A stretch of DNA of 64,000 nucleotides, from assembly GCA_021297985.1 (NCBI GenBank), contig JAJTGU010000015.1, positions 1,083 through 65,082 on the forward strand, read 5' to 3'. Origin of the DNA: Rubrivivax sp. (GTDB taxonomy: Bacteria > Pseudomonadota > Gammaproteobacteria > Burkholderiales > Burkholderiaceae_C). The notes below the pieces were generated by a model. That model had not been told where the DNA came from. It did no database searches and saw only the letters and a list, made by a program, of their open reading frames with translations. How positions within the stretch are numbered: the first letter of the stretch is position 1; every line of letters starts with the position of its first letter. Positions 36,961 to 56,466 of the stretch are shown here, piece by piece. Made by a program: the position numbers and the translations under genes.

Positions 36961-36997
36961 GCCCCGGCGACAAGCCCAAGCCGTAGCATCACCGACG

Positions 36998-37855: not shown

Positions 37856-38124
37856 GGCGTGCGCCGTCATGGCGCCGGTCTGTCGTGGGCGACGGGCCCC
37901 TGAACATCGGGGCGGCCAAAGCGTGACGAATTACCGGTCTTCGGCCGAGTTGTAACAGCGGCGGGTCCTCCCCTCTACAACTGAAGCAACTGCATGCAGA
38001 CGGGCACCAAGGCTCACTGCGACAGTTCACCGAGCCGGCTACCGTCGGTTCCCAGATGCTGAAAGGTCGTGTGCCCCAGGGCCTGCCGCTCAGCCCCAAG
38101 AACGAATCCGCTCCTCGCCCCGCC

Positions 38125-39243
38125 ATGTTCTTTTCCCGTCCACGAGATCCGGCCCAGCGCCGCCTGCCGTTGTTCGGATCGGCCAAGGCGCCTCCCTGCG
38201 TCGGCGGCTGGCTCGAACGCGAAGGCGTGTGCATGGGCACCGCGATCGTGCTGAAGTGGTGGAGCGCGCTGCCCTCCCGCACCGCGCACGACATCGCCCA
38301 GGCCGACGCCGCCTGGGCGCTGACGATGGCCGAGATGCGGCGCATCGACGAGTTGCTGTCGCCGCACAAGGCCACCAGCGAGCTGTCGCGCATCAACCGC
38401 GAGGCCGGCAGCCACGCGGTCGCGCTGAGCGAAGAGGTCTGCGGCCTGCTGGCCCAGGCGCTGGCGTTTTCAGCCGCCACGGACGGCGCCTTCGACATCA
38501 GCTATGCCGCTGCCGGTCAGCACTACGACTACCGGGCCGGCATCGCACCCGACATGGTGACGCTGCGCCGTGCCCGCGAATCCATCGGCTGGCGCGAATT
38601 GCATCTCGACCCGGTGCGCGGCACCTTGCGTTTTGGCCGCCCGGGCATGCGCATCGACCTCGGCGGTTTTGCCAAGGGTCATGCGGTGGACTGCGCCGCG
38701 GCTGCCCTGCAGCGTCACGGCGTGCAGCACGCCTGGTTGTCCGCAGGGGGCGACAGCCGCGTCATCGGCGACCGCCGAGGACGGCCCTGGAGCGTTGCCG
38801 TGCGCGACCCCAGGGTCGAGGGCGCGGCCGCAACCGCCGCGACCGCCGAACCCATTGCCGTGCTGCCGTTGGTGGACTGCGCGGTGTCGACCTCGGGCGA
38901 CTACGAGCGTGCCTTCGTCAAGGACGGCGTGCGCCACCACCACCTGCTGGACCCCGCAACCGGCAGTGCCGCCATCGGCGCGCGCAGCGTGACGACGATC
39001 GCCGATGCGTCGGCCCACGCCGGCCTCGCCACCGAGGCCTGGAGCAAGGCGCTGTTCGTGCTCGGGCCACAGCGCGGCATGCCGCTGCTGGCGCACAACG
39101 CGCCTGGACTCGACGCCGTGCTGGTCGACGCGGCTGGCAGGCTGCATTACTCGCGGGGCCTGGCGCAGGCGCTGCGGCCAGCGGTCGCCCTTCCCGAATC
39201 GAGCTCACCGCTGGTCTCGCGACCTGCCGCCGCGGTGGCCTGA
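38125..39243 (+). CDS. apbE: FAD:protein FMN transferase (ApbE family)
   Basis: CMGTAIVL..., SELSRINREAG, AFDISY, IDLGGFAKGHAVD, VSTSGDYERAF..HHHLLDP. The start is uncertain: ATG 38125 or ATG 38056. Neither gives a convincing signal peptide. Confidence 0.85.
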   Translation: MFFSRPRDPAQRRLPLFGSAKAPPCVGGWLEREGVCMGTAIVLKWWSALPSRTAHDIAQADAAWALTMAEMRRIDELLSPHKATSELSRINREAGSHAVALSEEVCGLLAQALAFSAATDGAFDISYAAAGQHYDYRAGIAPDMVTLRRARESIGWRELHLDPVRGTLRFGRPGMRIDLGGFAKGHAVDCAAAALQRHGVQHAWLSAGGDSRVIGDRRGRPWSVAVRDPRVEGAAATAATAEPIAVLPLVDCAVSTSGDYERAFVKDGVRHHHLLDPATGSAAIGARSVTTIADASAHAGLATEAWSKALFVLGPQRGMPLLAHNAPGLDAVLVDAAGRLHYSRGLAQALRPAVALPESSSPLVSRPAAAVA

Positions 39244-39285
39244 GCCGGCACCGTGTCCCAGAACGAACCCCAGAAAGTCTCCGGC

Positions 39286-42200
39286 ATGTCCATGACCTCA
39301 GGTTTGAATCGCACGCTGATCGCCGCGCTGGGCGGCCTGGCCGTGGCGGCCACCATCGCCGGCTGCCTGGGCGGCAGCGGAGATGGCGATACGCGCGACA
39401 CGGTCGTCGTGCAGGGCGACGTGCCCATCGTCTATGCCAAGCGCGCCACCACGCTGGGCATGAACCCCACCGACGGCACGCCCACCGCACCGGGCGGCGA
39501 CCTGCTGCTGCGCGAGAAGAGCAGCCCCAGCGCCCGCGAGCACAACCTGACGGCGCGCTTCACGCAGGGCGTCGGCGATGTGTCCGACCCCGAGGCCAGC
39601 CCGGACGGCAGGAAGGTCGTCTTCGCGATGCGCTGCCCGGCGAGCAACACCGCCACCGTGGACGGCACGGCCACGGGCGCGCGGGCCTGCACGGGTCGCT
39701 GGAACCTCTGGGAGTACGAAATGCGCGCGCTCGAAGGCGACGCGCTGATCCAGGGCACGTTCCGCCGTCTCACGGCAAGCAACCAGCACGATGACGTCGA
39801 CCCGGCCTACCTGCCGGCCAACCGGGGCGTGGTCTTCGCGAGCAACCGACAGCACTTCAGCAGCACCGACACCCGCTTCGGTCGCGCGTACCACACGCTG
39901 GACGAGTACGAACGCGAGCGGGTGCTGAACCTGCACACCATCAACGCCACGGGCGGCGACCTGAAGCAGATCAGCTTCAACATGAGCCATGAGCGCAACC
40001 CGGTCGTGCGCGCCAACGGCGACATCCTGTTCTCGCGCTGGGAGCACGTCGGCGACCGCAACCGCTTCGCGATCTTCAAGGCCAAGCCCGACGGCACCGA
40101 CATGTTCGTGCTCTACGGCGCACACAGCCCGGGCAACAGCTACCTGCACCCGCGCGAGATGGACCCGCGTGGCAAGTACAAGGGCTTCCTGGCCAGCACG
40201 CTGATGTCGCTGTCGGGCACCCAGGAAGGCGGCTCGCTGGAGTTCATCGACGCCGCGAACTACAGCGAGTTCAACACCCCGGCCTCGCGCAACGTGCCTG
40301 CCGCCGGCGGCCAGCGCCAGGGCACCGACCGGCAACTGTCCGACGGTCGCGGGCTGTCGACCTTCGGCCGCGTGACGACGCCGTTCCCGCTGTGGGACGG
40401 CACGGATCGCATCCTGCTGTCGTACCGCCCCTGCGAGGTGACCCGCAACGGCGTCGTCACCGCCTGCGCCAACCTCACCACCGACGAGATCGCGCGCGTT
40501 CAGACCGCCAACCGCTCGATGGCCGACCGTGCTGCCGATCCGATCCAGGACAACGCGCCGGCGGCCTACGCGGTGTGGATGTTCGACCCCGGCCCCCAGA
40601 CCTGGACCCTGGTCGCGGCGCCGCCACCGGGCTTCATGTACGTCGACCCGATCGCGCTGCAACCGCGCACCGAGCCCAGCGCCGCCCAGCCGACGACGGT
40701 GGACGATGCGCTGGCCGCGCGCGGCATGGCGCTGATCGAGGTCCGCAGCGTCTACGACACCGACGGCCTGAACCGGATGTCCGAGAACATGCTCGTCGCG
40801 GCCGACCGCCGCGCCGGCTGTGACCGCGCCATCGCGATGCGGGCGGTCGCCAACGCCGACCCGACCGAGACGCGCAGCCAGGTCGCCGATCTGGTGCGCA
40901 TGAAGGACCCGGCCGACCCGGCCTATGGCTGCGCGCCGGTGCGCTTCGTGCGGGCCATCCGCGCCGTCGGGCCGCCCTCCGGCATGACCGGCACCCGTGG
41001 CGCCATCGGCGAGACCGATTTCGAGCAGCAGCAGATCATCGGTTATGCGCCGATCGAACCCGACGGTTCGTTCAAGCTCGAGGTGCCGGCCGACATTCCG
41101 CTGGCGCTGTCCGTGGTCGACGAACAGGGCCGCGCGTTCCAGACCCACACCAACTGGATCCAGGTCCGCCCCGGCGAGCGTCGCACCTGTGATGGCTGCC
41201 ACAGCCCGCGTCGCGGTGCGGCGCTGAATGCCGGTTCGGTCGTCAACACCATGCCCGCGGCGCTGATGCCGTCGATGGCCTCGCAGCACCAGAGCGGCGA
41301 GACGCTCGCCAGCCTGCGCACCCGGCTCGACCCGGCGGCGCTGCTGCTGGCCGCCAGCCCGGTGTTCAGCGACGTGTGGGCCGACACCACCCGGGCCGGC
41401 GTGCAGGCCCGGCCGACCCTCGCGTTGCGCTACGCCGGCAACGTCGACCCGGCCGACGACCTGACGACGCCCGTGCCGCAGCGCGGCTACGTCAACTACC
41501 CGGACCACATCCAGCCGATCTGGGAAAAGGTGCGCGGACCTGGCGGCAGCCACACCTGCGTCGCCTGCCACGGCGAGACGGCGCGCACCAACCTGCTGGG
41601 CACGGTCTCGGGCACCGGTCGCATCGTCAGCTACGAAGAGCTGCTGATGGGCGAGCCGCAACTCGACGCGGCCACGGGCCAGCCTCGCATCCGGGTCGTC
41701 AACGGCGTGCCGGAAGTCATCCGCGGCCCGGCCCTGGTCAACACCAGTTCGGGCGCCATGAGCACCGCCGGCCAGACGCGCAAGAGCCGGCTCGGCGAGA
41801 TCCTGTTCGGCCAGAGCCTGCTCGCCGGCGCCGACAGCCGCGTCGCGTATCCGGCGCCACCGGCCTCGACGCCGACGCTGGTTTCGGTGCCCGACCACTC
41901 GATGCTGCTGAACAAGGCGGAGAAGCGCCTGGTGTCGGAATGGATGGATCTGGGCGGCCAGTACGTCAACGACCCGTTCACCGCTGCCGGCAACCTGCGC
42001 ACGGTGACCGCGCTGTCGCAGACCAGCTTCGAGGCCGAGGTGCAGCCGACGCTGCGTGCGCTGTGCGTCAACTGTCACACCCCGGGTGCCGGGTTCCAGC
42101 GCAATCGCTTCGTGCTCACCGGCAGTCCCGAGGGCGACTACGGTGCGACGCTGTCGATGGTCAGCGACACTTGCCGCCCTGAACGCAACCCGCTGCTTGC

Positions 42201-42324
42201 GCGGCCCTCGACCATTCCGCACCCCAATGGGGCCCTGACGCAGACCGAAGCCCTGCTGCCGGCGACCGGTGACGCCTACCGCCGCATCTCGCAGTGGATC
42301 GCGCGCGGCTGCAGCAACAACTGA
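39286..42324 (+). CDS. lipoprotein with TolB/PD40-like beta-propeller and three CXXCH heme-binding motifs (hydrazine-synthase-alpha-like architecture)
   Basis: Signal plus lipobox MSMTSGLNRTLIAALGGLAVAATIAGC. Propeller-like repeats (SPDGRKVVFA, ANRGVVFASNR, ANGDILFSRWE). CDGCH at 41188-41202, CVACH at 41557-41571, CVNCH at 42064-42078. Confidence 0.85.
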   Translation: MSMTSGLNRTLIAALGGLAVAATIAGCLGGSGDGDTRDTVVVQGDVPIVYAKRATTLGMNPTDGTPTAPGGDLLLREKSSPSAREHNLTARFTQGVGDVSDPEASPDGRKVVFAMRCPASNTATVDGTATGARACTGRWNLWEYEMRALEGDALIQGTFRRLTASNQHDDVDPAYLPANRGVVFASNRQHFSSTDTRFGRAYHTLDEYERERVLNLHTINATGGDLKQISFNMSHERNPVVRANGDILFSRWEHVGDRNRFAIFKAKPDGTDMFVLYGAHSPGNSYLHPREMDPRGKYKGFLASTLMSLSGTQEGGSLEFIDAANYSEFNTPASRNVPAAGGQRQGTDRQLSDGRGLSTFGRVTTPFPLWDGTDRILLSYRPCEVTRNGVVTACANLTTDEIARVQTANRSMADRAADPIQDNAPAAYAVWMFDPGPQTWTLVAAPPPGFMYVDPIALQPRTEPSAAQPTTVDDALAARGMALIEVRSVYDTDGLNRMSENMLVAADRRAGCDRAIAMRAVANADPTETRSQVADLVRMKDPADPAYGCAPVRFVRAIRAVGPPSGMTGTRGAIGETDFEQQQIIGYAPIEPDGSFKLEVPADIPLALSVVDEQGRAFQTHTNWIQVRPGERRTCDGCHSPRRGAALNAGSVVNTMPAALMPSMASQHQSGETLASLRTRLDPAALLLAASPVFSDVWADTTRAGVQARPTLALRYAGNVDPADDLTTPVPQRGYVNYPDHIQPIWEKVRGPGGSHTCVACHGETARTNLLGTVSGTGRIVSYEELLMGEPQLDAATGQPRIRVVNGVPEVIRGPALVNTSSGAMSTAGQTRKSRLGEILFGQSLLAGADSRVAYPAPPASTPTLVSVPDHSMLLNKAEKRLVSEWMDLGGQYVNDPFTAAGNLRTVTALSQTSFEAEVQPTLRALCVNCHTPGAGFQRNRFVLTGSPEGDYGATLSMVSDTCRPERNPLLARPSTIPHPNGALTQTEALLPATGDAYRRISQWIARGCSNN

Positions 42325-42326
42325 CG

Positions 42327-42950
42327 ATGCCACGACGATCTTCGATCCCTTCCGCGCTGTGGCCTGCGCTGCTGGCCCTGGCCCTGGCCCTTGGCCTGTC
42401 GGCCTGCGGCGGTGGTGACAGCGCGCTGGACAACCCGCCGCAGGTCGCCAACCCGCCGGTGGCGGACAACAACGCCGGCCGGCTGTCGTTCGTCTACTTC
42501 CAGCGCTGCATCCAGCCGGTGCTGAACACGCCGCTGCGGGTCGTGATCAACGGCGTTCCGTCGATCAACACCTGCGCCAGTGCGGGGTGCCACGACAACG
42601 CGAGCGGCACCGGCGGTGCCCTGCGCCTGGTGGGCAGCGCGCTGCCGGCCGATCTGACGCTGACCCCGGCGCAGATCCGCAACACCGAGATGTACCGCAA
42701 CTACTTCTCGTCGGCCGGCGAGGTGGCCATCGGCCAGCCGCTGCAGAGCCGGCTGCTGAACAAGCCCCTGGTGCGCAACGTGCTTCACGGCGGCGGCCTG
42801 ATCTTCGAGTCGCCTGACGATCCCGCGGCCCGGCTGATCCGATACTGGATCGAACGGCCGATGCCGCAGGGCCAGGACGAGTTCAGCCCCGCCGCAGCGG
42901 CCTTGTTCACACCGGCAGATCTGAACACGGGGGCTTGCAACACCCAATGA
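42327..42950 (+). CDS. lipoprotein with a cytochrome-c-like module carrying CX4CH (CASAGCH)
   Basis: The ATG lies 2 nt after the upstream stop. Lipobox LALGLSAC. FVYFQRCIQPVLNTPL...CASAGCHDNASGTGGALRL resembles the F..V.P.L...C..CH modules in the upstream protein. Confidence 0.75.
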   Translation: MPRRSSIPSALWPALLALALALGLSACGGGDSALDNPPQVANPPVADNNAGRLSFVYFQRCIQPVLNTPLRVVINGVPSINTCASAGCHDNASGTGGALRLVGSALPADLTLTPAQIRNTEMYRNYFSSAGEVAIGQPLQSRLLNKPLVRNVLHGGGLIFESPDDPAARLIRYWIERPMPQGQDEFSPAAAALFTPADLNTGACNTQ

Positions 42951-42960
42951 CCCCGACCCA

Positions 42961-43045
42961 GGGCCCGCATGAGCGGGCCGTGACGGCTCTATCGCCCGCA
43001 TGAGTGGGCCACAAGACAACACCACGAGGGCGCGCATGACGCGAG
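42961..43045 (+). repeat. three tandem small hairpins with CATGA-containing loops in an intergenic spacer
   Basis: GGCCCGC-ATGA-GCGGGCC (about 42962-42979), GCCCGC-ATGA-GTGGGC (about 42993-43008) and CGCG-CATGA-CGCG (about 43030-43042). The CCCGCATG core recurs at the 43081 start codon. Confidence 0.45.
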
Positions 43046-43080
43046 GGACACAGAGGACAGGCACGACGGCGACAGCCCGC

Positions 43081-43851
43081 ATGGCGCCAGCACACGGTGG
43101 CGTGGCGGCGTTGCTGTTGCTGCTGCTGGCCCTGCCCAGCCAGGCGCAGATCCTGCCGGCCACGCCGGGCGTGGACCGCCCGGTGCCGGACGGCCACCTG
43201 ACCGTCGAGGACCCCTTCCTGGAACTGCACAGCGGCCCGGGGCGTGGCTTCCCGGTGTTCTTTGTCGTCGAACGCGGGCGTTGGATTGCCATCGAGATGC
43301 GGCGCACGGACTGGTTCCTGGTCCGCACGCAGGAAGGTGCTCGCGGCTGGGTGCCGCGGGCGCAGATCGAACGCACGCTGGCCGGGGGTGCCACTTCGTT
43401 GCGTGATCTGATGGTCGACGGCCTGCTCGCCCGTCGTGTCGAGATGGGGGGCAGCTGGGGACGTTTCGACGGCGAGAGCATGCTCAAGCTCTGGGCCCAT
43501 GTGCGCGCGAGCGAGATCTTCGGTGTCGAACTCGCCACCGGTCAGGTCCAGGGCGTGTTCTCGGGGACCGATTTCTGGCACGCCTCGCTGGTCGCCGAGC
43601 CCTGGGGCCAGGCGGCGTGGTCGCCCTTTGCCAGTGTCGGCCTCGGGCAGTTCCGCAACTTCCCGAACACGAGCCTCGTCGGCGCGAAGTTCACCGACGC
43701 GCGGCTCGCCAGCGCCAGCATCGGCCTGCGCTGGCGCGCCGGCCCCCGCCTGATCGTGCGCGCCGACTGGACCCTGTACACCGCCTTCGTGGCCGACGAC
43801 CGCAGCCCCGAGTACCGGGCGCTCACCGCCGGCCTGGCGTTTTCGTTCTGA
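43081..43851 (+). CDS. SH3-like domain + outer-membrane beta-barrel protein
   Basis: Signal MAPAHGGVAALLLLLLALPSQAQ. SH3_3-like GPGRGFPVFFVVERGRWIAIEMRRTDWFLVRTQEGARGWVPRAQI. C-terminal OMP signature YRALTAGLAFSF. Confidence 0.75.
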   Translation: MAPAHGGVAALLLLLLALPSQAQILPATPGVDRPVPDGHLTVEDPFLELHSGPGRGFPVFFVVERGRWIAIEMRRTDWFLVRTQEGARGWVPRAQIERTLAGGATSLRDLMVDGLLARRVEMGGSWGRFDGESMLKLWAHVRASEIFGVELATGQVQGVFSGTDFWHASLVAEPWGQAAWSPFASVGLGQFRNFPNTSLVGAKFTDARLASASIGLRWRAGPRLIVRADWTLYTAFVADDRSPEYRALTAGLAFSF

Positions 43852-43869
43852 TCCTCCTCGAACACCTCC

Positions 43870-44520
43870 ATGTCATCGATCCGCCTGTTCGCTGCCCTCG
43901 CCCTGATGGCGACCGTTTCGGCTCACGGCCAGACGGCGGCGTCTTCGCCAGTACCCGCCGCCGCCTCGCCCCAGCCCATCGAACCGCGGGTCGTGCGGCG
44001 CGAGGTCAAGCTGCCGCGGTTCCCGAGCCGCGACTTCGAGGTCTCGGCCTTTGCCGGTAGCTATTCGACACAGAACTTTGGCAATGGCAACGTTTCCGGC
44101 TTCAAGCTGGGCTACCACATCACCGAAGACTTCTTCGTGCTCGCGACGGTCGGCCAGACCACCGTCAGCGACGAAAACTTCCGCCGCGTGCTGCCGGGCG
44201 GCCTGTTCGCCAAACCGGAGCAGAAACTGGACTACGCCAACGTCGCGGCCGGCTGGAACATCCTGCCCGGCGAGGTGTTCCTCGGCGGCAAGCGCGCGAT
44301 GCCGGCAGCGCTGTATCTCCTGGGCGGAATCGGCACGACCAAGTTCGCCGACCAGCGCAAGCAGACCGTGCACTACGGCTTCGGCTACCGCGTCTTCGTC
44401 TGGAATCGCTTTGCGATCAGCGCCGACGTTCGCCAGCACCACTTCGCGCTCGACCTGCTGGGTCGGCGCGAGACCACCCGCAATCCCGAGCTGAGCCTGA
44501 CCGCCAGCGTCTTCTTCTGA
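43870..44520 (+). CDS. outer-membrane beta-barrel protein
   Basis: Signal MSSIRLFAALALMATVSAHG. Alternating-hydrophobicity strands. Terminal ...LSLTASVFF. Confidence 0.8.
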   Translation: MSSIRLFAALALMATVSAHGQTAASSPVPAAASPQPIEPRVVRREVKLPRFPSRDFEVSAFAGSYSTQNFGNGNVSGFKLGYHITEDFFVLATVGQTTVSDENFRRVLPGGLFAKPEQKLDYANVAAGWNILPGEVFLGGKRAMPAALYLLGGIGTTKFADQRKQTVHYGFGYRVFVWNRFAISADVRQHHFALDLLGRRETTRNPELSLTASVFF

Positions 44521-44530
44521 CCCTGCCGCC

Positions 44531-45076
44531 ATGATGTCGACGCCCGATCTCGACCCGGCCCGCCGCACCTTTGCCGGCACCGTCGCCGCTGGCCTCACCG
44601 CCAGCCTGGTGGCGCCCTGGTTTGCCGGCGTGGCCCACGCCACAAGCGTCAAGCCCAAGGCGCTGCCGCCGGACTTCACGCTGCCCAGCAGCCTGGGGGG
44701 CAACCTGCGCCTGGCCGAGCAGCGCGGCCAGGTCGTGCTCGTGAACTTCTGGGCCACCTGGTGCGGCCCGTGCCTGATCGAGTTGCCGCACCTGAACCGG
44801 CTGCACGACAAGTACCGCAGCGCCGGCGTGCTGCTGCTGGGCGTTTCGGTGGACAACGACGCCAAGGCCGCCGCGGCGATGGCCAAGAAGCTCGACCTGC
44901 GCTTTGCCACGCTGTTCGACACCGCCAAGACCGTGAGCCGGGCCTGGGACCTGGACGCCATGCCCTCGACCGTGCTGCTGGACCGCGACGGCCGTGTCCG
45001 CCACATCCACCTCGGCTACCGCGACGGCCTGGAGAAGACCTACGAAGCCCAGCTCCGCGAGCTGGTCAAGGAGTGA
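44531..45076 (+). CDS. TlpA family thiol:disulfide oxidoreductase (Tat-like signal)
   Basis: ARRTFAG twin-arginine-like signal. Thioredoxin fold with VLVNFWATWCGPCLIELP. Confidence 0.9.
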   Translation: MMSTPDLDPARRTFAGTVAAGLTASLVAPWFAGVAHATSVKPKALPPDFTLPSSLGGNLRLAEQRGQVVLVNFWATWCGPCLIELPHLNRLHDKYRSAGVLLLGVSVDNDAKAAAAMAKKLDLRFATLFDTAKTVSRAWDLDAMPSTVLLDRDGRVRHIHLGYRDGLEKTYEAQLRELVKE

Positions 45077-45081
45077 GCGCG

Positions 45082-45327
45082 ATGCGACCAGAACGCGGCT
45101 TCGTCGGCACCTCGTTGGCGCTCGTGCTGGCGCTGCTCGGCAGCGGCTGCGCGATCAAGCCCATCGAGCCCTGGGTCAAGCCCTACGAGCGGGAGCGGCT
45201 CACCGACCCGGTGATGCAGTGGTCGCGCGCCAGCCTGGCCGACCGCCACCGCGAGCACATCCATTCGGTGCGCGAGGGCGCCCGCGGCGCGGTGGGCGTG
45301 CAAGGGGGCGGCTGTGGCTGCAACTGA
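45082..45327 (+). CDS. DUF4266 family small lipoprotein
   Basis: 81 aa. LALLGSGCAIKPIEPWVKPYERERL... ending in GGGCGCN, which I recall as the DUF4266 hallmark. The ATG lies 5 nt after the tlpA stop. Confidence 0.8.
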   Translation: MRPERGFVGTSLALVLALLGSGCAIKPIEPWVKPYERERLTDPVMQWSRASLADRHREHIHSVREGARGAVGVQGGGCGCN

Positions 45328-45340
45328 AGCCGGGACTTCT

Positions 45341-45487
45341 CCCACCCTCACCCCAGCCCTCTCCCGCCCTGCGGGAGAGGGGGCCGGAGAGCTTTCCCCA
45401 GAATTGGCAGGAGAGGGGGCCGTGGGACTGTGGCGCTGGCTGTCGAACTCCCTCTCCCGCTGGCGGGAGAGGGCAGGGGTGAGGGGG
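45341..45487. repeat. inverted pair of REP-like palindromic elements plus one partial copy
   Basis: Copy A is CCCTCACCCCAG + CCCTCTCCCGC-CCT-GCGGGAGAGGG (about 45345-45381). Copy B is CCCTCTCCCGC-TG-GCGGGAGAGGG + CAGGGGTGAGGG (about 45450-45485), the inverse of A. A partial copy GGCAGGAGAGGGGGCCG lies at about 45407-45422. Confidence 0.75.
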
Positions 45488-46561
45488 CTGTTCAGCGGAT
45501 TGGCGGCCGCTGGCGCGGCAACTGTCGCCCCGGCCGCGGTGCTGCCCGACGACAAGGCCGAGGCGATGTTCCACGTCTACGACGGCGGCGGGGTCAAGGC
45601 CGACGGCCCGGCTTTCCTGGTGCGCAAGAAGCTCGGCGAGCGGGTGTCGCTGTCGGCGGGCTACTACATCGACGCGGTCAGCAATGCCTCGATCGACGTC
45701 GTCACCACGGCCAGTCCGTTCAAGGAGAAGCGCACCGCCTGGGATTTCGGCGCCGACTGGCTGGTCGGCAACAGCGTGCTGACGCTGTCGGGCTCGACCA
45801 GCCGCGAGCCCGACTACGAGGCCAACGCCGTCAATGCCGATGTCGCGGCCGATGTCTTCGGTGGCATGACGACGCTCTCGCTCGGCTTCACGCGCGGCAG
45901 CGACCGGGTCGGACGGACCGACCGCCGCGAGGTGTTCTTCGACGACGTGCGGCGCTGGCAGTACCGCGCCGGCGTGACCCAGATCCTGTCGCCGCGCTGG
46001 CTGATGAGCCTGAACGCCGAGGCGATCTCCGAAGACGGCTACCTCGGCAGTCCGTATCGCGCGGCGCGCGTGTTCGGCGCCTTCGTGCCCGAACGGCTGC
46101 CACGCACGCGCACCGGCCGGGCCGTCAAGCTGCGCAGCCTGGCCGAGGTGCTGCCCGACACCGCGCTGCGGATCGAGGCGCGCGCCTACTGGGACACGTG
46201 GGATGTTCGCGGCCGCACGATCGAGATCGCCGGCACGCGAAAGTTCGGCCCGCAGTGGCTGCTCGACGTCTCGCTGCGCAGCCACAAGCAGACGGCGGCG
46301 CTGTTCTACGCCGACAACGCCCAGGTCGACACCGTCTTCGTGACACGCAACCGGCAGTTGTCGGCCTTCAACTCGCTGGGCCTGGGCGCCAAGCTGACCT
46401 GGAAGCCGGCCGCCGCCTGGGCCGAGCGCTACGGCGTGCAGGTCACCGGCGTGTTCGAGCGCAAGCGTTTCCGCTTCCCCGAGTTCATCGACCTGCGCAA
46501 CCAGCGACCCTACGCGTACGACGCCAACGTCATGCAAGTGGTGCTGGCCGGCCGCTTCTAG
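45479..46561 (+). CDS. DUF3570 family protein (putative OM beta-barrel)
   Basis: FHVYDGGGVKADGPAFLVRKKL...YYIDAVSNASIDVVTTASP..., with terminal ...VVLAGRF. GTG 45479 gives signal MRGLFSGLAAAGAATVAPAA. The ORF-track GTG 45314 would add a repeat-encoded N-terminus. The start is uncertain. Confidence 0.8.
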   Translation: MRGLFSGLAAAGAATVAPAAVLPDDKAEAMFHVYDGGGVKADGPAFLVRKKLGERVSLSAGYYIDAVSNASIDVVTTASPFKEKRTAWDFGADWLVGNSVLTLSGSTSREPDYEANAVNADVAADVFGGMTTLSLGFTRGSDRVGRTDRREVFFDDVRRWQYRAGVTQILSPRWLMSLNAEAISEDGYLGSPYRAARVFGAFVPERLPRTRTGRAVKLRSLAEVLPDTALRIEARAYWDTWDVRGRTIEIAGTRKFGPQWLLDVSLRSHKQTAALFYADNAQVDTVFVTRNRQLSAFNSLGLGAKLTWKPAAAWAERYGVQVTGVFERKRFRFPEFIDLRNQRPYAYDANVMQVVLAGRF

Positions 46562-46585
46562 ATTTCGCACCCCGAGGACCTTGCC

Positions 46586-47341
46586 ATGCATGGCCTGCTC
46601 GACACCTCGTTCGACACCACGATCGGCGAGCCGCCCGAAAGCGGTCGCCGCCGAACCCACTGGCTGAGCCGGCTGCTGGGCGTTGCCCTCGCGGTGGCGA
46701 TGCTGCTGCCGCTGCTGCTGGCGCTCTGGGCCTTGCCGGCCGGTGCGCAGGACAAGCCCGTGGCGCCCGCGGCCCCTGCCGCTGCCGCCGCGTCTGCTCC
46801 TGCAAGCGCGGCCTCCGCGCCGGAAGTCGCGGCGAGCGTGGCGAGTGCCGCGAGCGTTGCGAGCGCTGCCGCACCCGCAACGCCGCCCCCACCCCCAGCG
46901 CCGCTGGAAACCCGCATCCAGCAGCTCAAGGCCGATCTGATCCAGCTCAACCGCGACCTGCTGATCCTCGAAGAGGAGCTGCTGTTCCCGGCCGGCACCC
47001 AGGTCGCGATCTTCGTGTCGATGGACGTCGGCCGGCTGTTCGAGCTGGAGTCGGTGCGGGTCGTGCTCGACGACAAGGTCGTCGCCCAGCATCTGTACTC
47101 ACCGCTCGAGGTTCAGGCCCTGCACCGCGGTGGCGTGCAGCGCCTGGTGCTGGCCAACGTGAAGAGCGGCGAGCACCGGATCGATGCGTTCTTCACCGGC
47201 CGCGGCCCGCACGAGCGCGACTACAAGCGCGGCACCACGGTCAAGTTCGACAAGGGCAGCGAGCCGCGCTACATCGAGCTGCGCATCCGCGACGTGCAGG
47301 CCAAGCTGCAGCCCGAGTTCGAGGTCAAGGTTTGGCAGTGA
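46586..47341 (+). CDS. membrane-anchored or secreted coiled-coil protein, unknown function
   Basis: TM or signal segment WLSRLLGVALAVAMLLPLLLALWALPAGA. Ala/Pro/Ser-rich linker. Coiled coil LETRIQQLKADLIQLNRDLLILEEELL. Beta-rich C-terminal domain. Confidence 0.75.
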   Translation: MHGLLDTSFDTTIGEPPESGRRRTHWLSRLLGVALAVAMLLPLLLALWALPAGAQDKPVAPAAPAAAAASAPASAASAPEVAASVASAASVASAAAPATPPPPPAPLETRIQQLKADLIQLNRDLLILEEELLFPAGTQVAIFVSMDVGRLFELESVRVVLDDKVVAQHLYSPLEVQALHRGGVQRLVLANVKSGEHRIDAFFTGRGPHERDYKRGTTVKFDKGSEPRYIELRIRDVQAKLQPEFEVKVWQ

Positions 47342-52200: not shown

Positions 52201-52358
52201 AACAGGCCATCGGCCTGCACGAGGCCAACGCCGCCCGTGCCCGCCAGGCCGGTGCCGACGAGTGGATGCGCAGGAGCCTGACCGAGCTCGCGCGGCTGAA
52301 GCCCGGCCGCTGGGCGCGCAACGAGATCGTCGAGGAGGTGATCGATGTCGCGCGCTGA
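49257..52358 (+). CDS. large TPR-repeat lipoprotein (1033 aa)
   Basis: The GTG start overlaps the upstream stop (GTGA). Lipobox LAATVAALPGC. TPR-like repeats run throughout. Confidence 0.8.
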   Translation: MTRRPFAARRTPALLVLAATVAALPGCGLFRSSELKRAEATDTAPTLASLGQHGSTVLPDTRLPVTPASEAAAIAAWQSYLKAAPATPAEAARRAEALRRLGDLGMLQADRKAAEAPTVAAAPAASPSPSPAVVAAAAGPAADEPDYRAAAARYEERLRLFPGAPGEDTVLYQLARAQEQAASLPGAPANALDVPLATLTRLVQQHPGSVHAEEAQFRRGEILFSSSRWAQAERAYAAVLATTATQPTREPSPLRERALYMQGWSLYKSNRSEEGLQPFMTVLDRLIGSAPEAGRDPSQDPVAAALPAPASAAADPLSRAERELLADTLRIVGITLAGLQGTNSIAPLVTTPMRRGYEHRLHQELAALYLRQERVKDATDTLTAFAAAQPLHPQAPAMLSQSIAVLEAAGFQTPALAAKRDFVARYGAGSALRQPHPEVWTQAQPLVKAHLLTLARHHHATAQQTAGGPKAAAAADDVAQARRWYGEFIASYPQDAATPGQHFLLAELLQDAGAAAEAAVAFEQVAYRYPSHARSADAGYAALLLAPAGDAAGQRRFAEQADRFAQTFERDGRAASVLVRAAELRLGLGDATAATTTAKAALARGGASAAEQRTAWTTIAQAAFDGRAYADAEAAYTAALAVNVTAVAGAAGAAGAAAAAGPTALGERRAAAVYQQGDEARRANRLNDALVHFERLAGLTQDSTLLATAAFDAASTRVALRDWPGAATALVAFRERHRGSPLVARVTPLLANAWLQQERWLPAAQEFERLAAEASGPDGPDQRRAALFQAATLHQRTLDGLSRRGLLLSSQTAVTQRAWERVLREPGTPATTATQVRWALADLAARQGDAPREQQLLQALRRAEAAAPEAERSSVSRDLAALATIRLAEPLAASYRRIPLSEPLQRQFKRKKAALDEVLAAYRQAADLGSSGAVSAATFHTAALVQDFGQALIKSERPRQLKGAALEQYTVMLEEQAFPFEEQAIGLHEANAARARQAGADEWMRRSLTELARLKPGRWARNEIVEEVIDVAR

Positions 52359-52398
52359 TTCGCCCTCGCAGGCCATCGCGCAGGCCATCGCTCAGGTG

Positions 52399-53157
52399 AT
52401 GCGCCGCGGCATCGTCGCTTTCGCGGTGGGCATGCTGGGCCTGTTCGCGGGTTGCGCGATGTTCGCCAAGCCGGCTGCGCCGCCGCCGGCCGCGGTGGCG
52501 GCAGTCTCGGCTCCCGCGCCCGCGGCATCGGCGCCGGACATCGCCCGCATCGTCGCGGCCTTGCCCGAGCCCGAACCCCGCGCAGCACCGGCGCAGGCCA
52601 GCCCCGGCGCCGAGCCCCAGCAGCCACCGCCGGCGCCGCCATTGCCACCGTTGCCGGCGGCCGTGCAGCAGGCCTTTGCTGCGGCCGTGACGTTGCAACG
52701 TGCCGGCCGTGCCGACGAGGCCGCATCGGCCTGGAAGGCCCTGCTGCGCGAGCAACCCGAGTTGGCCGGCGCACACGCCAACCTCGGCCTGCTGCACCGC
52801 AAGGCCGGACGCCTCGACGAGGCCATCGTGGCGCTCGAGCGCGCGGTGCAACTGAGCCCGCGGCAGGCGGCTTTCAGCAACCAGTTCGGCATCGCGCTGC
52901 GCCAGGCCGGTCGGTTCGCCCAGGCCCGCCAGGCCTATGAACAAGGCCTGGCGGCGCAGCCCGAGCACGCGGCCAGCCACTTCAATCTGGCGATCCTGCT
53001 GGACCTGTACCTCGGCGACCGCGACGCGGCACTGACGCACTACCAGCGGGCCCAGGTCCTGCTGCCCGAGCAGGCGCCGCAGGTCCAGCGCTGGGTCGCG
53101 GAGCTGAAGAACCGCAAACCCGACGCGCCGCTCGCGTTGCGCAAGGAGAAGGAGTGA
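52399..53157 (+). CDS. TPR-repeat lipoprotein
   Basis: MRRGIVAFAVGMLGLFAGC signal plus lipobox; ATG 52345 is an alternative start. Pro-rich linker. Three or four TPRs (AGRADEAASAWKALL..., AGRLDEAIVALERAV..., AGRFAQARQAYEQGL...). Confidence 0.8.
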   Translation: MRRGIVAFAVGMLGLFAGCAMFAKPAAPPPAAVAAVSAPAPAASAPDIARIVAALPEPEPRAAPAQASPGAEPQQPPPAPPLPPLPAAVQQAFAAAVTLQRAGRADEAASAWKALLREQPELAGAHANLGLLHRKAGRLDEAIVALERAVQLSPRQAAFSNQFGIALRQAGRFAQARQAYEQGLAAQPEHAASHFNLAILLDLYLGDRDAALTHYQRAQVLLPEQAPQVQRWVAELKNRKPDAPLALRKEKE

Positions 53158-53555
53158 TGGTGTCGCTGCCCTTCACCCCACACGCCCTCGGTGTGGCCTG
53201 TCTGGTGTTCGCGACCGGTGCATTGGCACAGACGCGGACCGCGCGTCCTGCCGCCGCCGCGCCGTCGGCTCCTGTGGCGGCCGTGGCTGGGGCCGCGTCC
53301 GCTGCCGAACCCGCGTCGCCCGACCGCGCCGAGCTCGAACGCACCCAGATCACCGGCAGCCGCGAGCTGCCCAAGGTGCTGTACATCGTGCCCTGGAAGA
53401 AGCCGCCACCCGGCCAGCCCATCGCGCGGCCCGAGCGCAGCGTGATCGATGACGCGTTGTTGCCCATCGAGCGCGCGGTGCTGCAACGCCAGATCGGATA
53501 TCACCGGCAACTCGCCACACCGGCCGCCGGCGGCACCGCTGCACTGCGGCCCTGA
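53154..53555 (+). CDS. small secreted protein, unknown function
   Basis: ATGA overlap. Signal MMVSLPFTPHALGVACLVFATGALA. Conserved-looking ELPKVLYIVPWKKP block. Confidence 0.7.
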   Translation: MMVSLPFTPHALGVACLVFATGALAQTRTARPAAAAPSAPVAAVAGAASAAEPASPDRAELERTQITGSRELPKVLYIVPWKKPPPGQPIARPERSVIDDALLPIERAVLQRQIGYHRQLATPAAGGTAALRP

Positions 53556-53620
53556 GTCCACGTTCCGCCCCATTCCGAACCTCTACCAAACGCTGCCCGA
53601 AAGCCCATCGAAAGCCTGCC

Positions 53621-54280
53621 ATGAACACGCTGCAAACCGTCATCAAGTTCTTCCAGGACTGCGGACCCTTTCTCTACCCCAGCCTGATCCTGATGACCCT
53701 GGGCCTGGCGATCGCCATCGAGCGCTGGATCTTCCTGCGCCGCGCGCGCAGCGAGAACCGCGAGCTGTGGGACCGCATGCTGCCGCTGCTGCAAGGGGGC
53801 AAGCTCGACGAGGTCGGCAAGCTCGCGTCGGCCAGCCCGGCCGCGGTCGGCCGCATCGTCGCCAACGGCCTCGAGCGGCTGCCCAGCGCCCGCAAGCGCG
53901 AGGACATCGACGCCGCGATGGAAGAAGGAATGATGGAGATCGTGCCGCGCCTTGAGAAGCGCACCCACTACATCGCCACCTTCGCCAACGTCGTCACCCT
54001 GGTCGGCCTGCTGGGCACCATCATCGGGCTGATCAAGGGCTTCACGGCGGTGGCGTCGGTCAACCCGGCCGAAAAGGCCGAGATGCTGTCGGCCAGCATC
54101 TCGATCGCGATGAACAACACCGCGTTTGCGCTGATGGTCGCGATCCCCTTCCTGCTGATACACGCCTTCCTGCAGGCCCGCGCGAGCGAGATCGTCGACA
54201 GCCTCGAAGCCGCCAAGATCACCTTCCTGAACCTGGTGCAGCGCCTGGCGGCGGAGCGTCAGCAGCCGACCGCCCGTTGA
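53621..54280 (+). CDS. MotA/TolQ/ExbB proton-channel family protein
   Basis: Three TM helices and TLVGLLGTIIGLIKGF...AMNNTAFALMVAIPFLLIH, typical of ExbB/TolQ. Confidence 0.92.
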   Translation: MNTLQTVIKFFQDCGPFLYPSLILMTLGLAIAIERWIFLRRARSENRELWDRMLPLLQGGKLDEVGKLASASPAAVGRIVANGLERLPSARKREDIDAAMEEGMMEIVPRLEKRTHYIATFANVVTLVGLLGTIIGLIKGFTAVASVNPAEKAEMLSASISIAMNNTAFALMVAIPFLLIHAFLQARASEIVDSLEAAKITFLNLVQRLAAERQQPTAR

Positions 54281-54317
54281 TCGGCGTGTCGACCGCCCAC
54301 CCGAACCGACCCGCGCC

Positions 54318-54821
54318 ATGAAACGCAGACGCTTGAAGCGAACCGCCGCGCATCTGGAGATCACGGCGTTCATCAACCTGATCGTCGTGCTCGTGCCCTT
54401 CTTGCTGTCCACCGCGGTGTTCTCGCGCCTGGCGGTGATGGAGCTGAAGCTGCCCGCACCCAGCACCGCCGAAGGCCCGCTCGCGGCCGAAGACCTGAAG
54501 CTCGAGGTCGTGATCCGCAAGAACAGCTTTGAAGTCGGCGACCGCATCGGCGGCCTGTTCGCGACCGTGCAGCGCACGGCCACGGGCGGCGATGCCGCGG
54601 CGTTGAAGGAGCTGAACGGCGTGCTCGTGCAGGTCAAGGCGCGCTGGCCGCAGGCCCGCGAGGCGACCGTGCTGTCCGAGCCCGACACGCCTTACGACCA
54701 CGTCGTGCAGGTGATGGAGCAGCTGCGCAGCACCGTCACCGTGCACGAGGGTAAGCCGATGCGGGCCGAGCTGTTCCCGCTGATCGCGGTCGGCGACGCG
54801 CCGCTGCGCGCCAGGAGCTGA
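54318..54821 (+). CDS. ExbD/TolR family biopolymer transport protein (paralogue 1)
   Basis: N-terminal basic segment plus TM (LEITAFINLIVVLVPFLL). Periplasmic ExbD-like domain. Confidence 0.9.
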   Translation: MKRRRLKRTAAHLEITAFINLIVVLVPFLLSTAVFSRLAVMELKLPAPSTAEGPLAAEDLKLEVVIRKNSFEVGDRIGGLFATVQRTATGGDAAALKELNGVLVQVKARWPQAREATVLSEPDTPYDHVVQVMEQLRSTVTVHEGKPMRAELFPLIAVGDAPLRARS

Positions 54822-54826
54822 TCGCC

Positions 54827-55315
54827 ATGCTGACGCCCCGCCAACGTCGCAGCGAACACAAGAAGCGCCATGGCGACATGGTCGACATGAACCTGGTGTC
54901 GCTGATCGACGTGTTCACGATCCTGATCTTCTTCCTGCTGTTCAGCGCCAGCGGTGTCGAGGTGCTGACCACGCCCAAGGCGGTGAAGCTGCCGGTCGCC
55001 GAGAGCGAGGAGGTCCCCAAGCCGACACTGGTGCTGGTCATCTCCAACGAGGACATCCTGGTCGACGGCCGGCTCGTGATGTCGCTGCGCGACGCGATGG
55101 CCGCCGAGGGCGACGTGCTCGCGCCGCTGAAGGCCGCGCTCGACGTGCAGTCCCAGCGCGTGGCCATCAAGGCCGATGCCTCGCCGACCCAGGCCATCAC
55201 GATCATGGGTGACCGCAGCATCCCCTGGGCGGTGCTCAAGCGCGTGATGGCCAGCTGCGCCGCGGCGAACTACGCCGATGTGTCGCTGGCCCTCAGCAAG
55301 CGGGACGGCGTATGA
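54827..55315 (+). CDS. ExbD/TolR family biopolymer transport protein (paralogue 2)
   Basis: DMNLVSLIDVFTILIFFLL carries the conserved Asp in the TM helix. Periplasmic ExbD-like domain. Confidence 0.9.
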   Translation: MLTPRQRRSEHKKRHGDMVDMNLVSLIDVFTILIFFLLFSASGVEVLTTPKAVKLPVAESEEVPKPTLVLVISNEDILVDGRLVMSLRDAMAAEGDVLAPLKAALDVQSQRVAIKADASPTQAITIMGDRSIPWAVLKRVMASCAAANYADVSLALSKRDGV

Positions 55316-56466
55316 CGGCCGCCAGCATCTCCATGGGTGAGGGCTTCGGTGGCCGGGCCCGGCGCGAGCGTGCCGGCGAGTTCTCGAGCCGCGTGCTGCC
55401 CTGGGCGACCTCGGCCGCCGACGAACAGCGCTTCTGGCGCATCGCCCGCCGCATCGGCATCCTGATGCTGGTGCTCGGCGTGGCGCTGCCCTTCCTGCCG
55501 CGGCCTGAGAAGTCGCTGGACCGCATCGAGCCATTGCCGGCACCGATGGCGCGGCTGCTGCTCGAAGGCCAGAAACCGCCGCCTCCGCCACCGCCCAAGC
55601 CGGTGGCCGAGACCCCGCCGCCGCCGCAAGCGACGGCCGCCGCCAAGCCCGAGCCGCGTGCCACGCGGCCCGAGGACCGCAAGGCCGCGCGCGTGCCCGA
55701 GGCGCGCAACCCGGTCGAAGGCAAGCCCCCGGGCGAGGCCGCGATCGAAGTCGCGCGTCGCCAGGCCATGGGCGTCGGCCTGCTCGCCATGAAGGCCGAG
55801 CTGTCGCAGATGGCCGCCGGCGCGCCGCTGGCCGCGCAGCTGAAGAAGGACATCCCCCCCGGGCCGGGCGTCGGCACCGGCCAGGGACCCGGCGTGGGCA
55901 TGGGCAGCGACCCGGGCCTGCCGGCGCGTGCGCTGCTGACCGCGGCCGGAGGCCGGCCCTCGGGCAGCGGCGGCATCAACACCGCCGCCTACAGCCGCGA
56001 CACCGGCGGCGGAGGCCTGGCCGGGCGCAGCAGCACGCTGGTCGAAGGTGTCGCCTCGGGCGGTGGTGGGGGCGGCCCGGGCGGCGGCGGTGGCGGGCGA
56101 ACCGGCGGCACCGGGGTCGGCGGCGGCAGTGCGGGGGCCGCCAACACCGCGGTCGCCAAGGGCGGCAGTGGCAAGGCGAGCCGCTCGATCGAGGAGATCA
56201 AGCTCGTCTTCGAACGCCACAAGGGCGCGATCTACGCGCTGTACCAGCGCGCGCTGCGCGACGATCCGGCCTTGCAGGGCAAGGTCGTGCTCGAACTCAA
56301 GATCGCCCCCAGCGGCGAGGTGCTGGCCTGCCGCGTGCTGTCCAGCGAGCTGAAGTCACCGGAGCTGGAGAACAAGCTGCGCGCCCGCGTGCAGGGCTTC
56401 GACTTCGGCGCCAAGGACGTTGCCGAGATCGTGGTCTCGTGGCCGGTGGACTTCTTGCCGAGCTGA
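55312..56466 (+). CDS. TonB-like energy-transducer protein with an AgmX/PglI-type C-terminal domain
   Basis: ATGA overlap. One TM (IARRIGILMLVLGVALPFL). Pro-rich (KPPPPPPPKP) and Gly-rich (GGGGGGPGGGGGG) linkers. C-terminal IKLVFERHKGAIYALYQRALRDDPALQGKVVLELKIAPSGEVLACRVL. Confidence 0.85.
   Translation: MTAASISMGEGFGGRARRERAGEFSSRVLPWATSAADEQRFWRIARRIGILMLVLGVALPFLPRPEKSLDRIEPLPAPMARLLLEGQKPPPPPPPKPVAETPPPPQATAAAKPEPRATRPEDRKAARVPEARNPVEGKPPGEAAIEVARRQAMGVGLLAMKAELSQMAAGAPLAAQLKKDIPPGPGVGTGQGPGVGMGSDPGLPARALLTAAGGRPSGSGGINTAAYSRDTGGGGLAGRSSTLVEGVASGGGGGGPGGGGGGRTGGTGVGGGSAGAANTAVAKGGSGKASRSIEEIKLVFERHKGAIYALYQRALRDDPALQGKVVLELKIAPSGEVLACRVLSSELKSPELENKLRARVQGFDFGAKDVAEIVVSWPVDFLPS

Follow-up and report, generated by a model that had tools for sequence, protein, structure and literature searches.

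An Agl-Glt-type core gene set combined with flavin, thiol and heme redox genes in a Rubrivivax gene cluster

The stretch of DNA analysed here (the window) comprises 64,000 nucleotides (nt) of contig JAJTGU010000015.1 from the Rubrivivax sp. assembly GCA_021297985.1. Between positions 38125 and 56466 its plus strand carries 17 co-directional genes, in which a set of the Agl-Glt type (ExbB/ExbD-like motor, TonB-like protein and tetratricopeptide-repeat (TPR) proteins) is combined with genes of a thiol-flavin-heme module. The region joins two described, uncharacterised systems, and the linkage between them is evolutionarily maintained. This linkage is the new point; the halves themselves have already been described bioinformatically.

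Genes of the cluster

Genes were delimited by calling based on third-codon-position G+C (GC3) and by tables of open reading frames (ORFs); the G+C content of the window is ~70%. Junctions within the cluster range from -14 to +130 nt, including gaps of 2, 18, 10, 5 and 24 nt and 4-nt overlaps, which upholds the tight packing described in an earlier sequence-only reading of this DNA. Pfam and NCBIfam scans, with matches graded by the curated cut-offs of the models, agree with every family named in that reading, from ApbE to the TonB-like protein (Table 1). The endings typical of outer-membrane proteins (OMPs), AFSF, SVFF and AGRF, are indeed seen in SH3-OMP, OMP_myx_plus and DUF3570, and Pfam matches confirm the LytS/LytTR pair reported directly upstream on the plus strand. 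The statement that nearly every product has an export signal or anchor needs correction for ApbE, in which no convincing signal peptide is found. Terminators between the modules had been named as evidence against a joint cluster; a consensus scan gave 6 terminator-like sites versus 6.8 expected from shuffled sequence, none of them in the intergenic junctions. Three independent metagenome assemblies of the same species have an identical order from the LytS kinase gene to the first ExbD gene, the limit of the 10-kb flank, and other loci on those three contigs extend through GltG. The joint of the cluster is therefore not an assembly artefact.

Table 1. Genes of the cluster, followed by the two-component system upstream of it (positions in the window; aa, amino acids)
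Feature	Coordinates	Strand	Family match or other basis
ApbE-family FAD:protein FMN (flavin mononucleotide) transferase (alternative start 38056)	38125..39243	+	PF02424 1.3e-68
HzsA-like lipoprotein, 1012 aa	39286..42324	+	HZS_alpha PF18582 7e-19; PDB 5c2v_A 4.5e-11
Small lipoprotein with CX4CH, 207 aa, putative monoheme cytochrome	42327..42950	+	no family
SH3 domain + small outer-membrane beta-barrel (SH3-OMP), ends AFSF	43081..43851	+	weak SH3_3/SH3_4 and OMP_b-brl matches
OMP_myx_plus outer-membrane beta-barrel, ends SVFF	43870..44520	+	TIGR04565 1.7e-34, above cut-off
TlpA/ResA-type periplasmic thiol:disulfide oxidoreductase, CGPC	44531..45076	+	Redoxin (PF08534) 1.2e-26; ResA subfamily 2.7e-27
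DUF4266 small lipoprotein, ends GGGCGCN (CXC)	45082..45327	+	PF14086 3e-21
DUF3570, ApbE substrate family, ends AGRF, no Cys	45314..46561 (start maybe 45422, as in other assemblies)	+	PF12094 1e-26
'cc' secreted protein	46586..47341	+	no family; signal peptide, alignment across lineages
GltC-like TPR/coiled-coil periplasmic protein, 640 aa	47338..49260	+	TPR matches; weak GltC match 0.0037; position and size as Table S3 of Luciano et al.
GltD-like TPR lipoprotein, 1033 aa	49257..52358	+	YbgF, BamD and PorW-like TPR matches; position and size as Table S3
GltE-like TPR lipoprotein, 270 aa	52345..53157	+	NF033758 GltE 2.7e-9, below equivalog cut-off; position and size as Table S3
'X' small secreted protein, 133 aa, motif Y-[IF]-[IV]-P-W-K	53154..53555	+	no family; between GltE and AglR
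AglR-like ExbB/TolQ proton channel, 219 aa	53621..54280	+	PF01618 2e-26
AglQ-like ExbD/TolR paralogue, 167 aa, Asn at transmembrane Asp position	54318..54821	+	PF02472 1e-13
AglS-like ExbD/TolR paralogue, 162 aa, transmembrane Asp kept (LIDVF)	54827..55315	+	PF02472 1.3e-14
GltG-like TonB/TolA-type transducer, 384 aa	55312..56466	+	NF033768 8.7e-17; GltG 3.6e-10; TonB_C 3e-5
LytS-type histidine kinase (directly upstream)	34934-36487	+	PF06580 + HATPase_c
LytTR response regulator (directly upstream)	36998-37855	+	Response_reg + LytTR

The last eight genes of the cluster correspond to the Agl-Glt 'core complex' of Luciano et al. (2011, PLoS Genet 7:e1002268, PMC3169522), which comprises gltC, gltD, gltE, an extra gene without myxobacterial homologues, aglR, aglQ, aglS and gltG. 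This complex was listed for several Gammaproteobacteria, one betaproteobacterium, Geobacter and Fibrobacter, and its function outside gliders was left unassigned. Table S3 of the same paper gives product sizes of 550-692, 930-1108 and 160-263 aa, a skipped locus tag, and then 217-245, 169-188, 162-185 and 321-334 aa; the window values, in the same order, are 640, 1033, 270, (133), 219, 167, 162 and 384 aa. Assignment to the Agl-Glt type is based on the Saccharophagus and Methylibium clusters, which Luciano et al. placed in the Agl/Glt clade. The Saccharophagus degradans cluster reached via the AglR homologue is Sde_2954-2961 by gene sizes (for Sde_2961 to Sde_2954: 570, 952 and 230 aa, a gap, 242, 169, 185 and 325 aa, PMC3169522). 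Hidden Markov models (HMMs) built from the window proteins detect every one of these genes in the same order; the orthologue of GltD, Sde_2960, was found in locus L093 with the HMM of the window protein. For the sole betaproteobacterium, Methylibium petroleiphilum PM1, Mpe_A1224-1226 are listed with 634, 941 and 243 aa (PMC3169522).

By homology, the AglR-, AglQ- and AglS-like proteins form a proton-driven stator, and the GltG-like protein is its TonB/TolA-like output arm. The latter consists of an N-terminal transmembrane anchor, a Pro-rich and then a Gly-rich linker, and an AgmX/PglI C-terminal domain (NF033768, 61 bits versus a cut-off of 40); its match to the GltG model is far below the equivalog cut-off. 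The Asn of the AglQ-like protein (ITAFxNLxV, window 54318-54440) versus the Asp of the AglS-like protein (LVSLxDxF, 54827-54960) is found in every lineage examined, Cellvibrionaceae included. AglR-like orthologues are 74-84% identical in 80 Burkholderiales genomes; of 1.8 billion representatives, only 110 clusters are related to this protein at E<=1e-30. In one metagenome clade (L107, L110-L128, L163, L165), 11 of 14 AglR-like sequences have SGAS right after the first transmembrane segment, at about residue 39-50; this is probably not an ApbE site, the loop being cytoplasmic by ExbB topology.

The GltC-, GltD- and GltE-like proteins are, by homology, periplasmic or lipoprotein TPR scaffolds. 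NCBIfam searches at E<=10 gave no GltD-, GltA- or GltB-type match among the cluster proteins. The product called 'X' lies between GltE and AglR in nearly all loci (it was not called in L169 and L171), and its motif is common to the window and Saccharophagus; it represents the extra core-complex gene without a myxobacterial homologue mentioned by Luciano et al. One locus (L183:6390-9551) has a single 1053-aa TPR gene directly followed by X, so that GltD and GltE are apparently fused there, or GltE is lost.

The product called 'cc' is composed of a signal peptide, a variable Ala/Pro linker, one conserved helix (LNRDLxVLEEELLFP) and a beta-rich domain of ~120 aa ending in W. This layout comes from an alignment of 38 sequences covering all lineages. 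The gene precedes GltC in all clades and was present at each Glt core locus that was inspected. No match to cc was obtained in Pfam, NCBIfam or PDB, including a profile search against PDB sequences, and a profile search of DUF3570 against PDB sequences likewise gave nothing meaningful. Single-sequence AlphaFold models reached a predicted local distance difference test score (pLDDT) of 52 for cc and 31 for DUF3570, both too poor for a fold search. X and cc are thus two more conserved secreted subunits by homology.

SH3-OMP and OMP_myx_plus are, by homology, outer-membrane partners that adjoin the core even where redox genes are absent. Orthologues of SH3-OMP adjoin the Glt core in Saccharophagus and Marinimicrobium, both without redox genes, and by its position this protein would occupy a GltA/B-like place in the outer-membrane platform. 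OMP_myx_plus has a conserved N-terminal extension, E-x-V-I-x-P-x-V-[DE]-R-R-[DE]-V-K (window 43930-44020; also L013, L097, L168, L093 and L095), which is placed in the periplasm and could serve as a TonB-box-like docking strand. An extended N-terminus with a TonB-box-like sequence has been described for Myxococcus GltB (2020 preprint on the Glt core). The OMP pair could be distant relatives of GltA/B, and TIGR04565 matches one of the two. Since the pair and cc flank the core in Cellvibrionaceae without redox genes, they belong to the Glt side; the thiol and flavin genes therefore sit inserted inside the Glt cluster.

The redox genes of this insertion belong to a system described by Méheust et al. 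(2021, eLife 10:e66878, PMC8238504). DUF3570 is flavinylated by ApbE at two [S/T]GA[S/T] sites, as shown for Chlorobium luteolum, and clusters of ApbE, DUF3570, a thioredoxin-like protein and DUF4266 with a CXC end were counted with DsbD (227) and without it (316, of 543), their function being unassigned. DUF4266, DUF3570 and TlpA were also noted as neighbours in a preprint by Haft (2023). The window TlpA has a twin-arginine-like (RR) N-terminal signal, and the C-terminal tail of DUF4266 is conserved in all lineages. DUF3570 is probably an outer-membrane beta-barrel. Two D-x-x-[ST]-x-A-[ST] sites, with Gly replaced, fall in its most conserved block, YIDAVSNASIDVVTTASP; the sole strict-like flavinylation motif match, SGST, is not conserved. 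At the first of the two sites, one distant relative (L154) reads SGAS. No member of the DsbD family is encoded among the 17 genes or the scanned flanking genes.

The HzsA-like lipoprotein has an N-terminal PD40/TolB-like propeller, a middle heme domain of the HZS_alpha family (CDGCH) and then the motifs CVACH and CVNCH. In its alignment with the hydrazine synthase alpha subunit (5c2v_A, 45 bits), the middle and C-terminal heme motifs are matched. The motif of the small lipoprotein is CASAGCH (C-x-x-x-G-C-H), and its C-terminal end has the form ...G-x-C-N-x-x; Burkholderiales relatives and the distant locus L168 keep both features. A conserved Cys box closes the sequence of three lipoproteins in the cluster, usually with Cys fourth from the C-terminus (42310-42324, 42936-42950 and 45313-45327), relatives of which are seen in L019-L090, L097, L130, L140, L154 and L168. 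The HzsA-like tail is ...ARGCSNN (GCPTP and GCPAQ in relatives), with the ...GC-x-x-x end kept in 5 relatives; the tail of the CX4CH lipoprotein is ...TGACNTQ, and ~35 relatives have mostly G-x-C-N-x-[DEQ]. These boxes recall CAAX boxes and the GCGC of MYXO-CTERM signals, with the difference that no transmembrane segment follows.

Conservation of the linkage and genomic setting

Burkholderiales loci were collected in a genome-collection scan seeded with the AglR-like protein, which gave 80 loci from metagenome-assembled genomes and isolates of Rubrivivax, Ideonella, Aquabacterium, Piscinibacter, Caldimonas and Hydrogenophaga. Counts cover the loci whose sequence extends 2.5 kb or more upstream of cc (n=52). 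DUF3570, DUF4266 and the OMPs are present in all 52 and TlpA in 50, and TlpA-DUF4266-DUF3570 sits between the OMP pair and cc in the related loci. Where the sequence reaches far enough, all 20 loci contain the CX4CH lipoprotein and all 5 contain the end of the HzsA-like gene. ApbE is visible only in the window species within this order and stands beside the core in several other lineages. The gene order is unchanged while the identity of the TPR proteins falls to ~40%. Pairwise identities of DUF3570 track those of GltD and AglR (Spearman 0.88 for each); the value for GltD versus AglR is 0.80.

Cellvibrionaceae (Saccharophagus, Marinimicrobium) have SH3-OMP, OMP, a third OMP on the opposite strand, cc and the core, and no redox gene; the third OMP occupies the place of the Burkholderiales TlpA-DUF4266-DUF3570. 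A large PD40-propeller protein of up to 1499 aa follows GltG in this family (L093:13037-15819, L095:13157-17656). It was considered as a counterpart of the HzsA-like protein and rejected: only the propeller is similar (25% over 196 residues), and CXXCH motifs are lacking.

More divergent loci were obtained by a metagenome scan and by ENA contig look-ups of AglR relatives, the sampled ones being 52-58% identical to the window AglR. Among the 23 with enough upstream sequence, TlpA is present in 18, each time directly upstream of cc (as also in L181-L183), ApbE in 16 and DUF3570 in 6. The commonest arrangement is ApbE-TlpA-cc-core (type I). Other arrangements are TlpA-DUF4266-DUF3570-ApbE-TlpA-cc-core (L130, L140), DUF3570-LemA(-)-ApbE-TlpA-cc-core (L181), DUF3570-DUF4266-OMP-SH3-OMP divergently transcribed from TlpA-cc-core (L183), and an order like that of the window, preceded by the CX4CH lipoprotein. 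In six loci (L096, L107, L120, L163, L173, L181), the immediate upstream neighbour of ApbE is an oppositely oriented gene for an M48 peptidase and/or LemA. When loci are grouped into lineages by GltD identity below ~50%, redox genes (ApbE, TlpA or DUF3570) stand beside the core in 7 of ~12 lineages and in at least five arrangements.

The view of the sequence-only reading that redox and motor genes belong together thus gains support, the linkage being found in 52/52 Burkholderiales loci and recurring in divergent lineages in other orders. The boundary it drew between the modules has to be moved, the OMP pair and cc flanking a redox-less core in Cellvibrionaceae, and its 'coiled-coil protein' (cc) is by alignment one short helix with a beta-rich domain. 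Its statement that no known system has this combination stands for the combination itself: full-text literature searches gave no paper linking Agl-Glt with ApbE or describing such a cluster. It does not stand for the halves, each of which was already described.

The link of the two-component system to the cluster is known from this species alone (three assemblies). In the gap between kinase and regulator (window ~36490-36966; L184:2621-3097), a 158-aa gene without a Pfam match is called in other assemblies. A few kb further upstream (28732-32235) lie a 1167-aa regulator with BTAD, AAA_16 and TPR domains (SARP/LuxR-like architecture) and a LysR regulator. The cluster ends at an M13 peptidase gene on the opposite strand.

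Coupling of motor and redox genes

The region could represent one envelope-spanning system, in which an Agl-Glt-type core complex works together with a thiol-flavin-heme module encoded within its operon. Functional coupling of this general kind is the favoured reading and is put at about even probability; it is suggested by the conserved linkage. A more specific and tentative proposal, which is considered unlikely, is that the ancestral, non-gliding Glt core is a proton-driven device operating an outer-membrane redox conduit, by transfer gated through the proton motive force (PMF) or by surface display. By analogy with the Myxococcus Glt platform, which controls surface exposure of the lipoprotein CglB (2020 preprint), the motor may assemble, gate or expose the redox proteins.

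According to the favoured reading, proton flow through AglRQS would lead to movement of GltG, and GltG would act via the TPR scaffold on an outer-membrane platform of SH3-OMP and OMP, in which DUF3570 and DUF4266 would join the two small barrels. TlpA, fed by DsbD/CcdA encoded elsewhere, would pass reducing equivalents to the CXC and C-terminal Cys tails. From these tails, electrons could reach the FMN on DUF3570 (loaded by ApbE) and the hemes of the lipoproteins, which would extend the relay. Docking of GltG could occur on the N-terminal extension of the OMP, the PMF being used to assemble, gate or surface-expose the platform. In the conduit proposal, the arm would gate, or push to the surface, a set composed of the flavinylated DUF3570 barrel, DUF4266 and the Cys-box heme lipoproteins.

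Several findings weigh against such coupling. The proposed steps are drawn from sequence and gene order, with DUF3570 a putative barrel and the OMP pair possible homologues of GltA and GltB. The window DUF3570 has SNAS and TTAS versus the canonical [ST]GA[ST], and in loci with ApbE and TlpA but without an adjacent DUF3570, neither a conserved [ST]GA[ST] nor D-x-x-[ST]-x-A-[ST] was found in any cluster protein. A conserved Cys pair that could be a target of TlpA is absent from the core proteins. No recognisable Sec, twin-arginine translocation (Tat) or lipoprotein signal was found for the window ApbE in any frame (38056-38240); clear Sec signal peptides, with A-x-A at their end before E-W, are seen in the ApbE homologues that adjoin the Glt cores of other lineages, and the window gene may have an atypical signal or be degenerate. 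Many DUF3570 clusters elsewhere have no reported motor. Several of the redox-bearing lineages share the LemA/M48 synteny, so they are not fully independent. In five of the ~12 lineages (Cellvibrionaceae, L131, L139, L149, L164), the core has no redox genes within reach; the four single loci have unrelated upstream genes (phosphoribulokinase, a lectin-domain protein, AAA/VWA proteins). The motor therefore does not need the redox genes, which are accessory to the core.

Further points of this kind come from the gap between ApbE and TlpA in the commonest metagenome arrangement (L107:2652-2990, equivalents in L110-L173). Right after ApbE, a conserved hairpin, GTCGCCGAAAGGCGAC, is followed by a T-run and resembles a terminator. 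It is followed by TTTAACGTAATC and then by the CRP/FNR-like palindrome TGTGACGATCATCACG (TGTGA-N6-TCAC), ~100-150 nt before TlpA, so that a promoter-like region separate from ApbE is indicated. Rfam gave no family match in this gap or in the window. The conserved peptide MFRQDWSIVTIITAL read from the gap was rejected as a small ORF; it is the translation of the conserved DNA element (hairpin with T-run, palindrome).

Two independent envelope systems could simply be neighbours, perhaps co-regulated (e.g., by LytS/LytTR), with no mechanical or physical coupling; the Glt-type core would then have a job of its own, and ApbE, TlpA, DUF4266, DUF3570 and the heme proteins would serve periplasmic electron transfer separately. 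This somewhat improbable explanation would account for the five redox-less lineages, for type I loci, in which ApbE is apparently its own transcription unit, and for the DUF3570 clusters of hundreds of genomes for which no motor is mentioned (PMC8238504); part of the linkage could also be inherited synteny. However, TlpA-DUF4266-DUF3570 lies between genes of the Glt cluster (OMP pair, cc) with junctions of 2-24 nt, and in most divergent loci the core operon begins with TlpA. The linkage also survives at least five rearrangements, one of them a divergent-operon form in which DUF3570 and DUF4266 stand together with the two OMPs. That a motor near DUF3570 was never noted may be due to the survey reach of five genes either side (PMC8238504), which in the window-type arrangement would show only unannotated and TPR genes downstream of DUF3570. 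In another explanation, the redox genes provide maturation or maintenance factors: TlpA would keep cysteines reduced (those of heme-attachment CXXCH motifs or of the C-terminal tails), ApbE would modify a structural subunit, and the heme and flavin proteins would be structural or sensory elements in the outer-membrane platform. TlpA/ResA-type proteins are known to act as reductants when cytochrome c and copper proteins mature, no other redox gene accompanies the core as consistently as TlpA, and the Cys box shared by the three lipoproteins could need reduction or modification. This is distinctly unlikely, given that TlpA loci frequently lack heme or Cys-tail proteins in the vicinity (type I), that the core lacks the Cys pair mentioned above, and that the DUF3570 family is a shown flavin carrier, such carriers mediating electron transfer in all characterised cases (PMC8238504).

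TonB-type energised uptake, for example reductive acquisition of iron or another metal, would use the motor to drive a barrel (DUF3570 or the OMPs) while the redox proteins reduce the substrate in the periplasm. The ExbB/ExbD/TonB_C-like composition is compatible with it, as are the VIT1 iron transporter in 25 DUF3570 clusters and the frequent ties of flavinylated systems to iron reduction (PMC8238504). It is nevertheless very improbable: the cluster contains no TonB-dependent receptor, inner-membrane transporter or binding protein, its TonB-like protein has a C-terminal domain of the AgmX/PglI (Glt-type) family, and large TPR scaffolds characterise Glt/Nfs machines rather than Ton systems. 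A surface-transport machine for gliding motility or spore-coat (Nfs-like) assembly, as in Myxococcus, is suggested by the homology to AglRQS and GltC/D/E/G and is scarcely to be expected. The genes gltF, H, I, J and K, required for gliding and restricted to Myxococcales/Bdellovibrionales, have no equivalog-level match among the cluster products, and Luciano et al. argue that the core alone drives no motility and that its hosts are not gliders (PMC3169522).

Relation to known systems

The Agl-Glt core and the DUF3570/DUF4266/ApbE system are two widespread envelope systems without an assigned function since their description, and the myxobacterial gliding and spore-coat machines evolved from the former. 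In a 2020 preprint from the same school the function of the Glt core is still called unknown, and protein secretion is suggested. With interleaved genes and a linkage kept through rearrangements, each orphan system gains a concrete partner. If true, the conduit proposal would give a first function both to the Glt core and to the DUF3570 system, which have awaited one since 2011 and 2021, respectively. Cultivable hosts exist: Methylibium petroleiphilum PM1 has the listed core genes, and isolates of Ideonella, Aquabacterium and Rubrivivax have redox genes adjoining the core.

The HzsA-like protein shares with hydrazine synthase HzsA (PDB 5c2v) the propeller, the middle heme domain and the C-terminal heme domain. 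The similarity is at the domain level only, the window protein is a lipoprotein with an extra CXXCH, and the host is not an anammox bacterium; the hydrazine synthase model NF052339 gives 52 bits versus a cut-off of 800, and no HzsB or HzsC genes are present in the cluster.

Tol-Pal and ExbB-ExbD-TonB systems are similar in their stator superfamily, in the elongated Pro-rich transducer with a TonB_C-like end and in YbgF/CpoB-like TPR modules; a weak likeness to Tol-Pal is the N-terminal TolB-like propeller that the HzsA-like protein carries (E 0.0025, 17 bits versus a cut-off of 343). In contrast to these systems, the cluster has two ExbD paralogues, one of them without Asp, and very large TPR lipoproteins. 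No TolB orthologue and no OmpA_C/Pal domain were found among the cluster products, and the 17 products lack TonB-dependent receptor domains (Plug, TonB_dep_Rec).

With the Agl-Glt gliding machine of Myxococcus xanthus, the cluster has in common the AglRQS motor, the TonB-like arm and the TPR periplasmic proteins. Its small beta-barrels and lipoproteins resemble the M. xanthus platform (GltA, GltB and GltH barrels, GltK lipoprotein, CglB cargo), and in both the N-terminal extensions of barrels are possible TonB boxes. Unlike in that machine, NCBIfam gives no equivalog-level match for GltF/H/I/J/K in the cluster (GltJ matches a Pro-rich region only), AglZ and MglA are lacking there, and the putative cargo or partner is a set of redox proteins, not an adhesin.

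The published DUF3570 system and the window share ApbE, DUF3570, a thioredoxin-fold protein and DUF4266 with a CXC end, all co-located. The cluster differs in having no DsbD, in a thioredoxin-fold protein of the TlpA/Redoxin type instead of PF13899, in the predicted sites SNAS and TTAS in place of [ST]GA[ST], and in an ApbE without a clear signal peptide. Here the set lies within a motor operon, together with heme lipoproteins.

The closest counterpart is the Agl-Glt core complex, with the same eight genes in the same order and of the same sizes, one ExbB-like and two ExbD-like proteins, three TPR proteins and a TonB-like protein with the AgmX/PglI C-terminal domain; Methylibium and the window come from one and the same group of Burkholderiales. 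The genes added here (cc, OMP pair, redox and heme genes) are not mentioned in the parts of the text of Luciano et al. (2011) that were available. The published core stops at gltC, whereas the conserved unit described here is enlarged by the universal subunit cc (all lineages) and by the SH3-OMP/OMP pair (several lineages). To this unit, 7 of ~12 lineages add TlpA, ApbE or DUF4266/DUF3570, some of them the CX4CH lipoprotein, and the Burkholderiales the HzsA-like protein as well.

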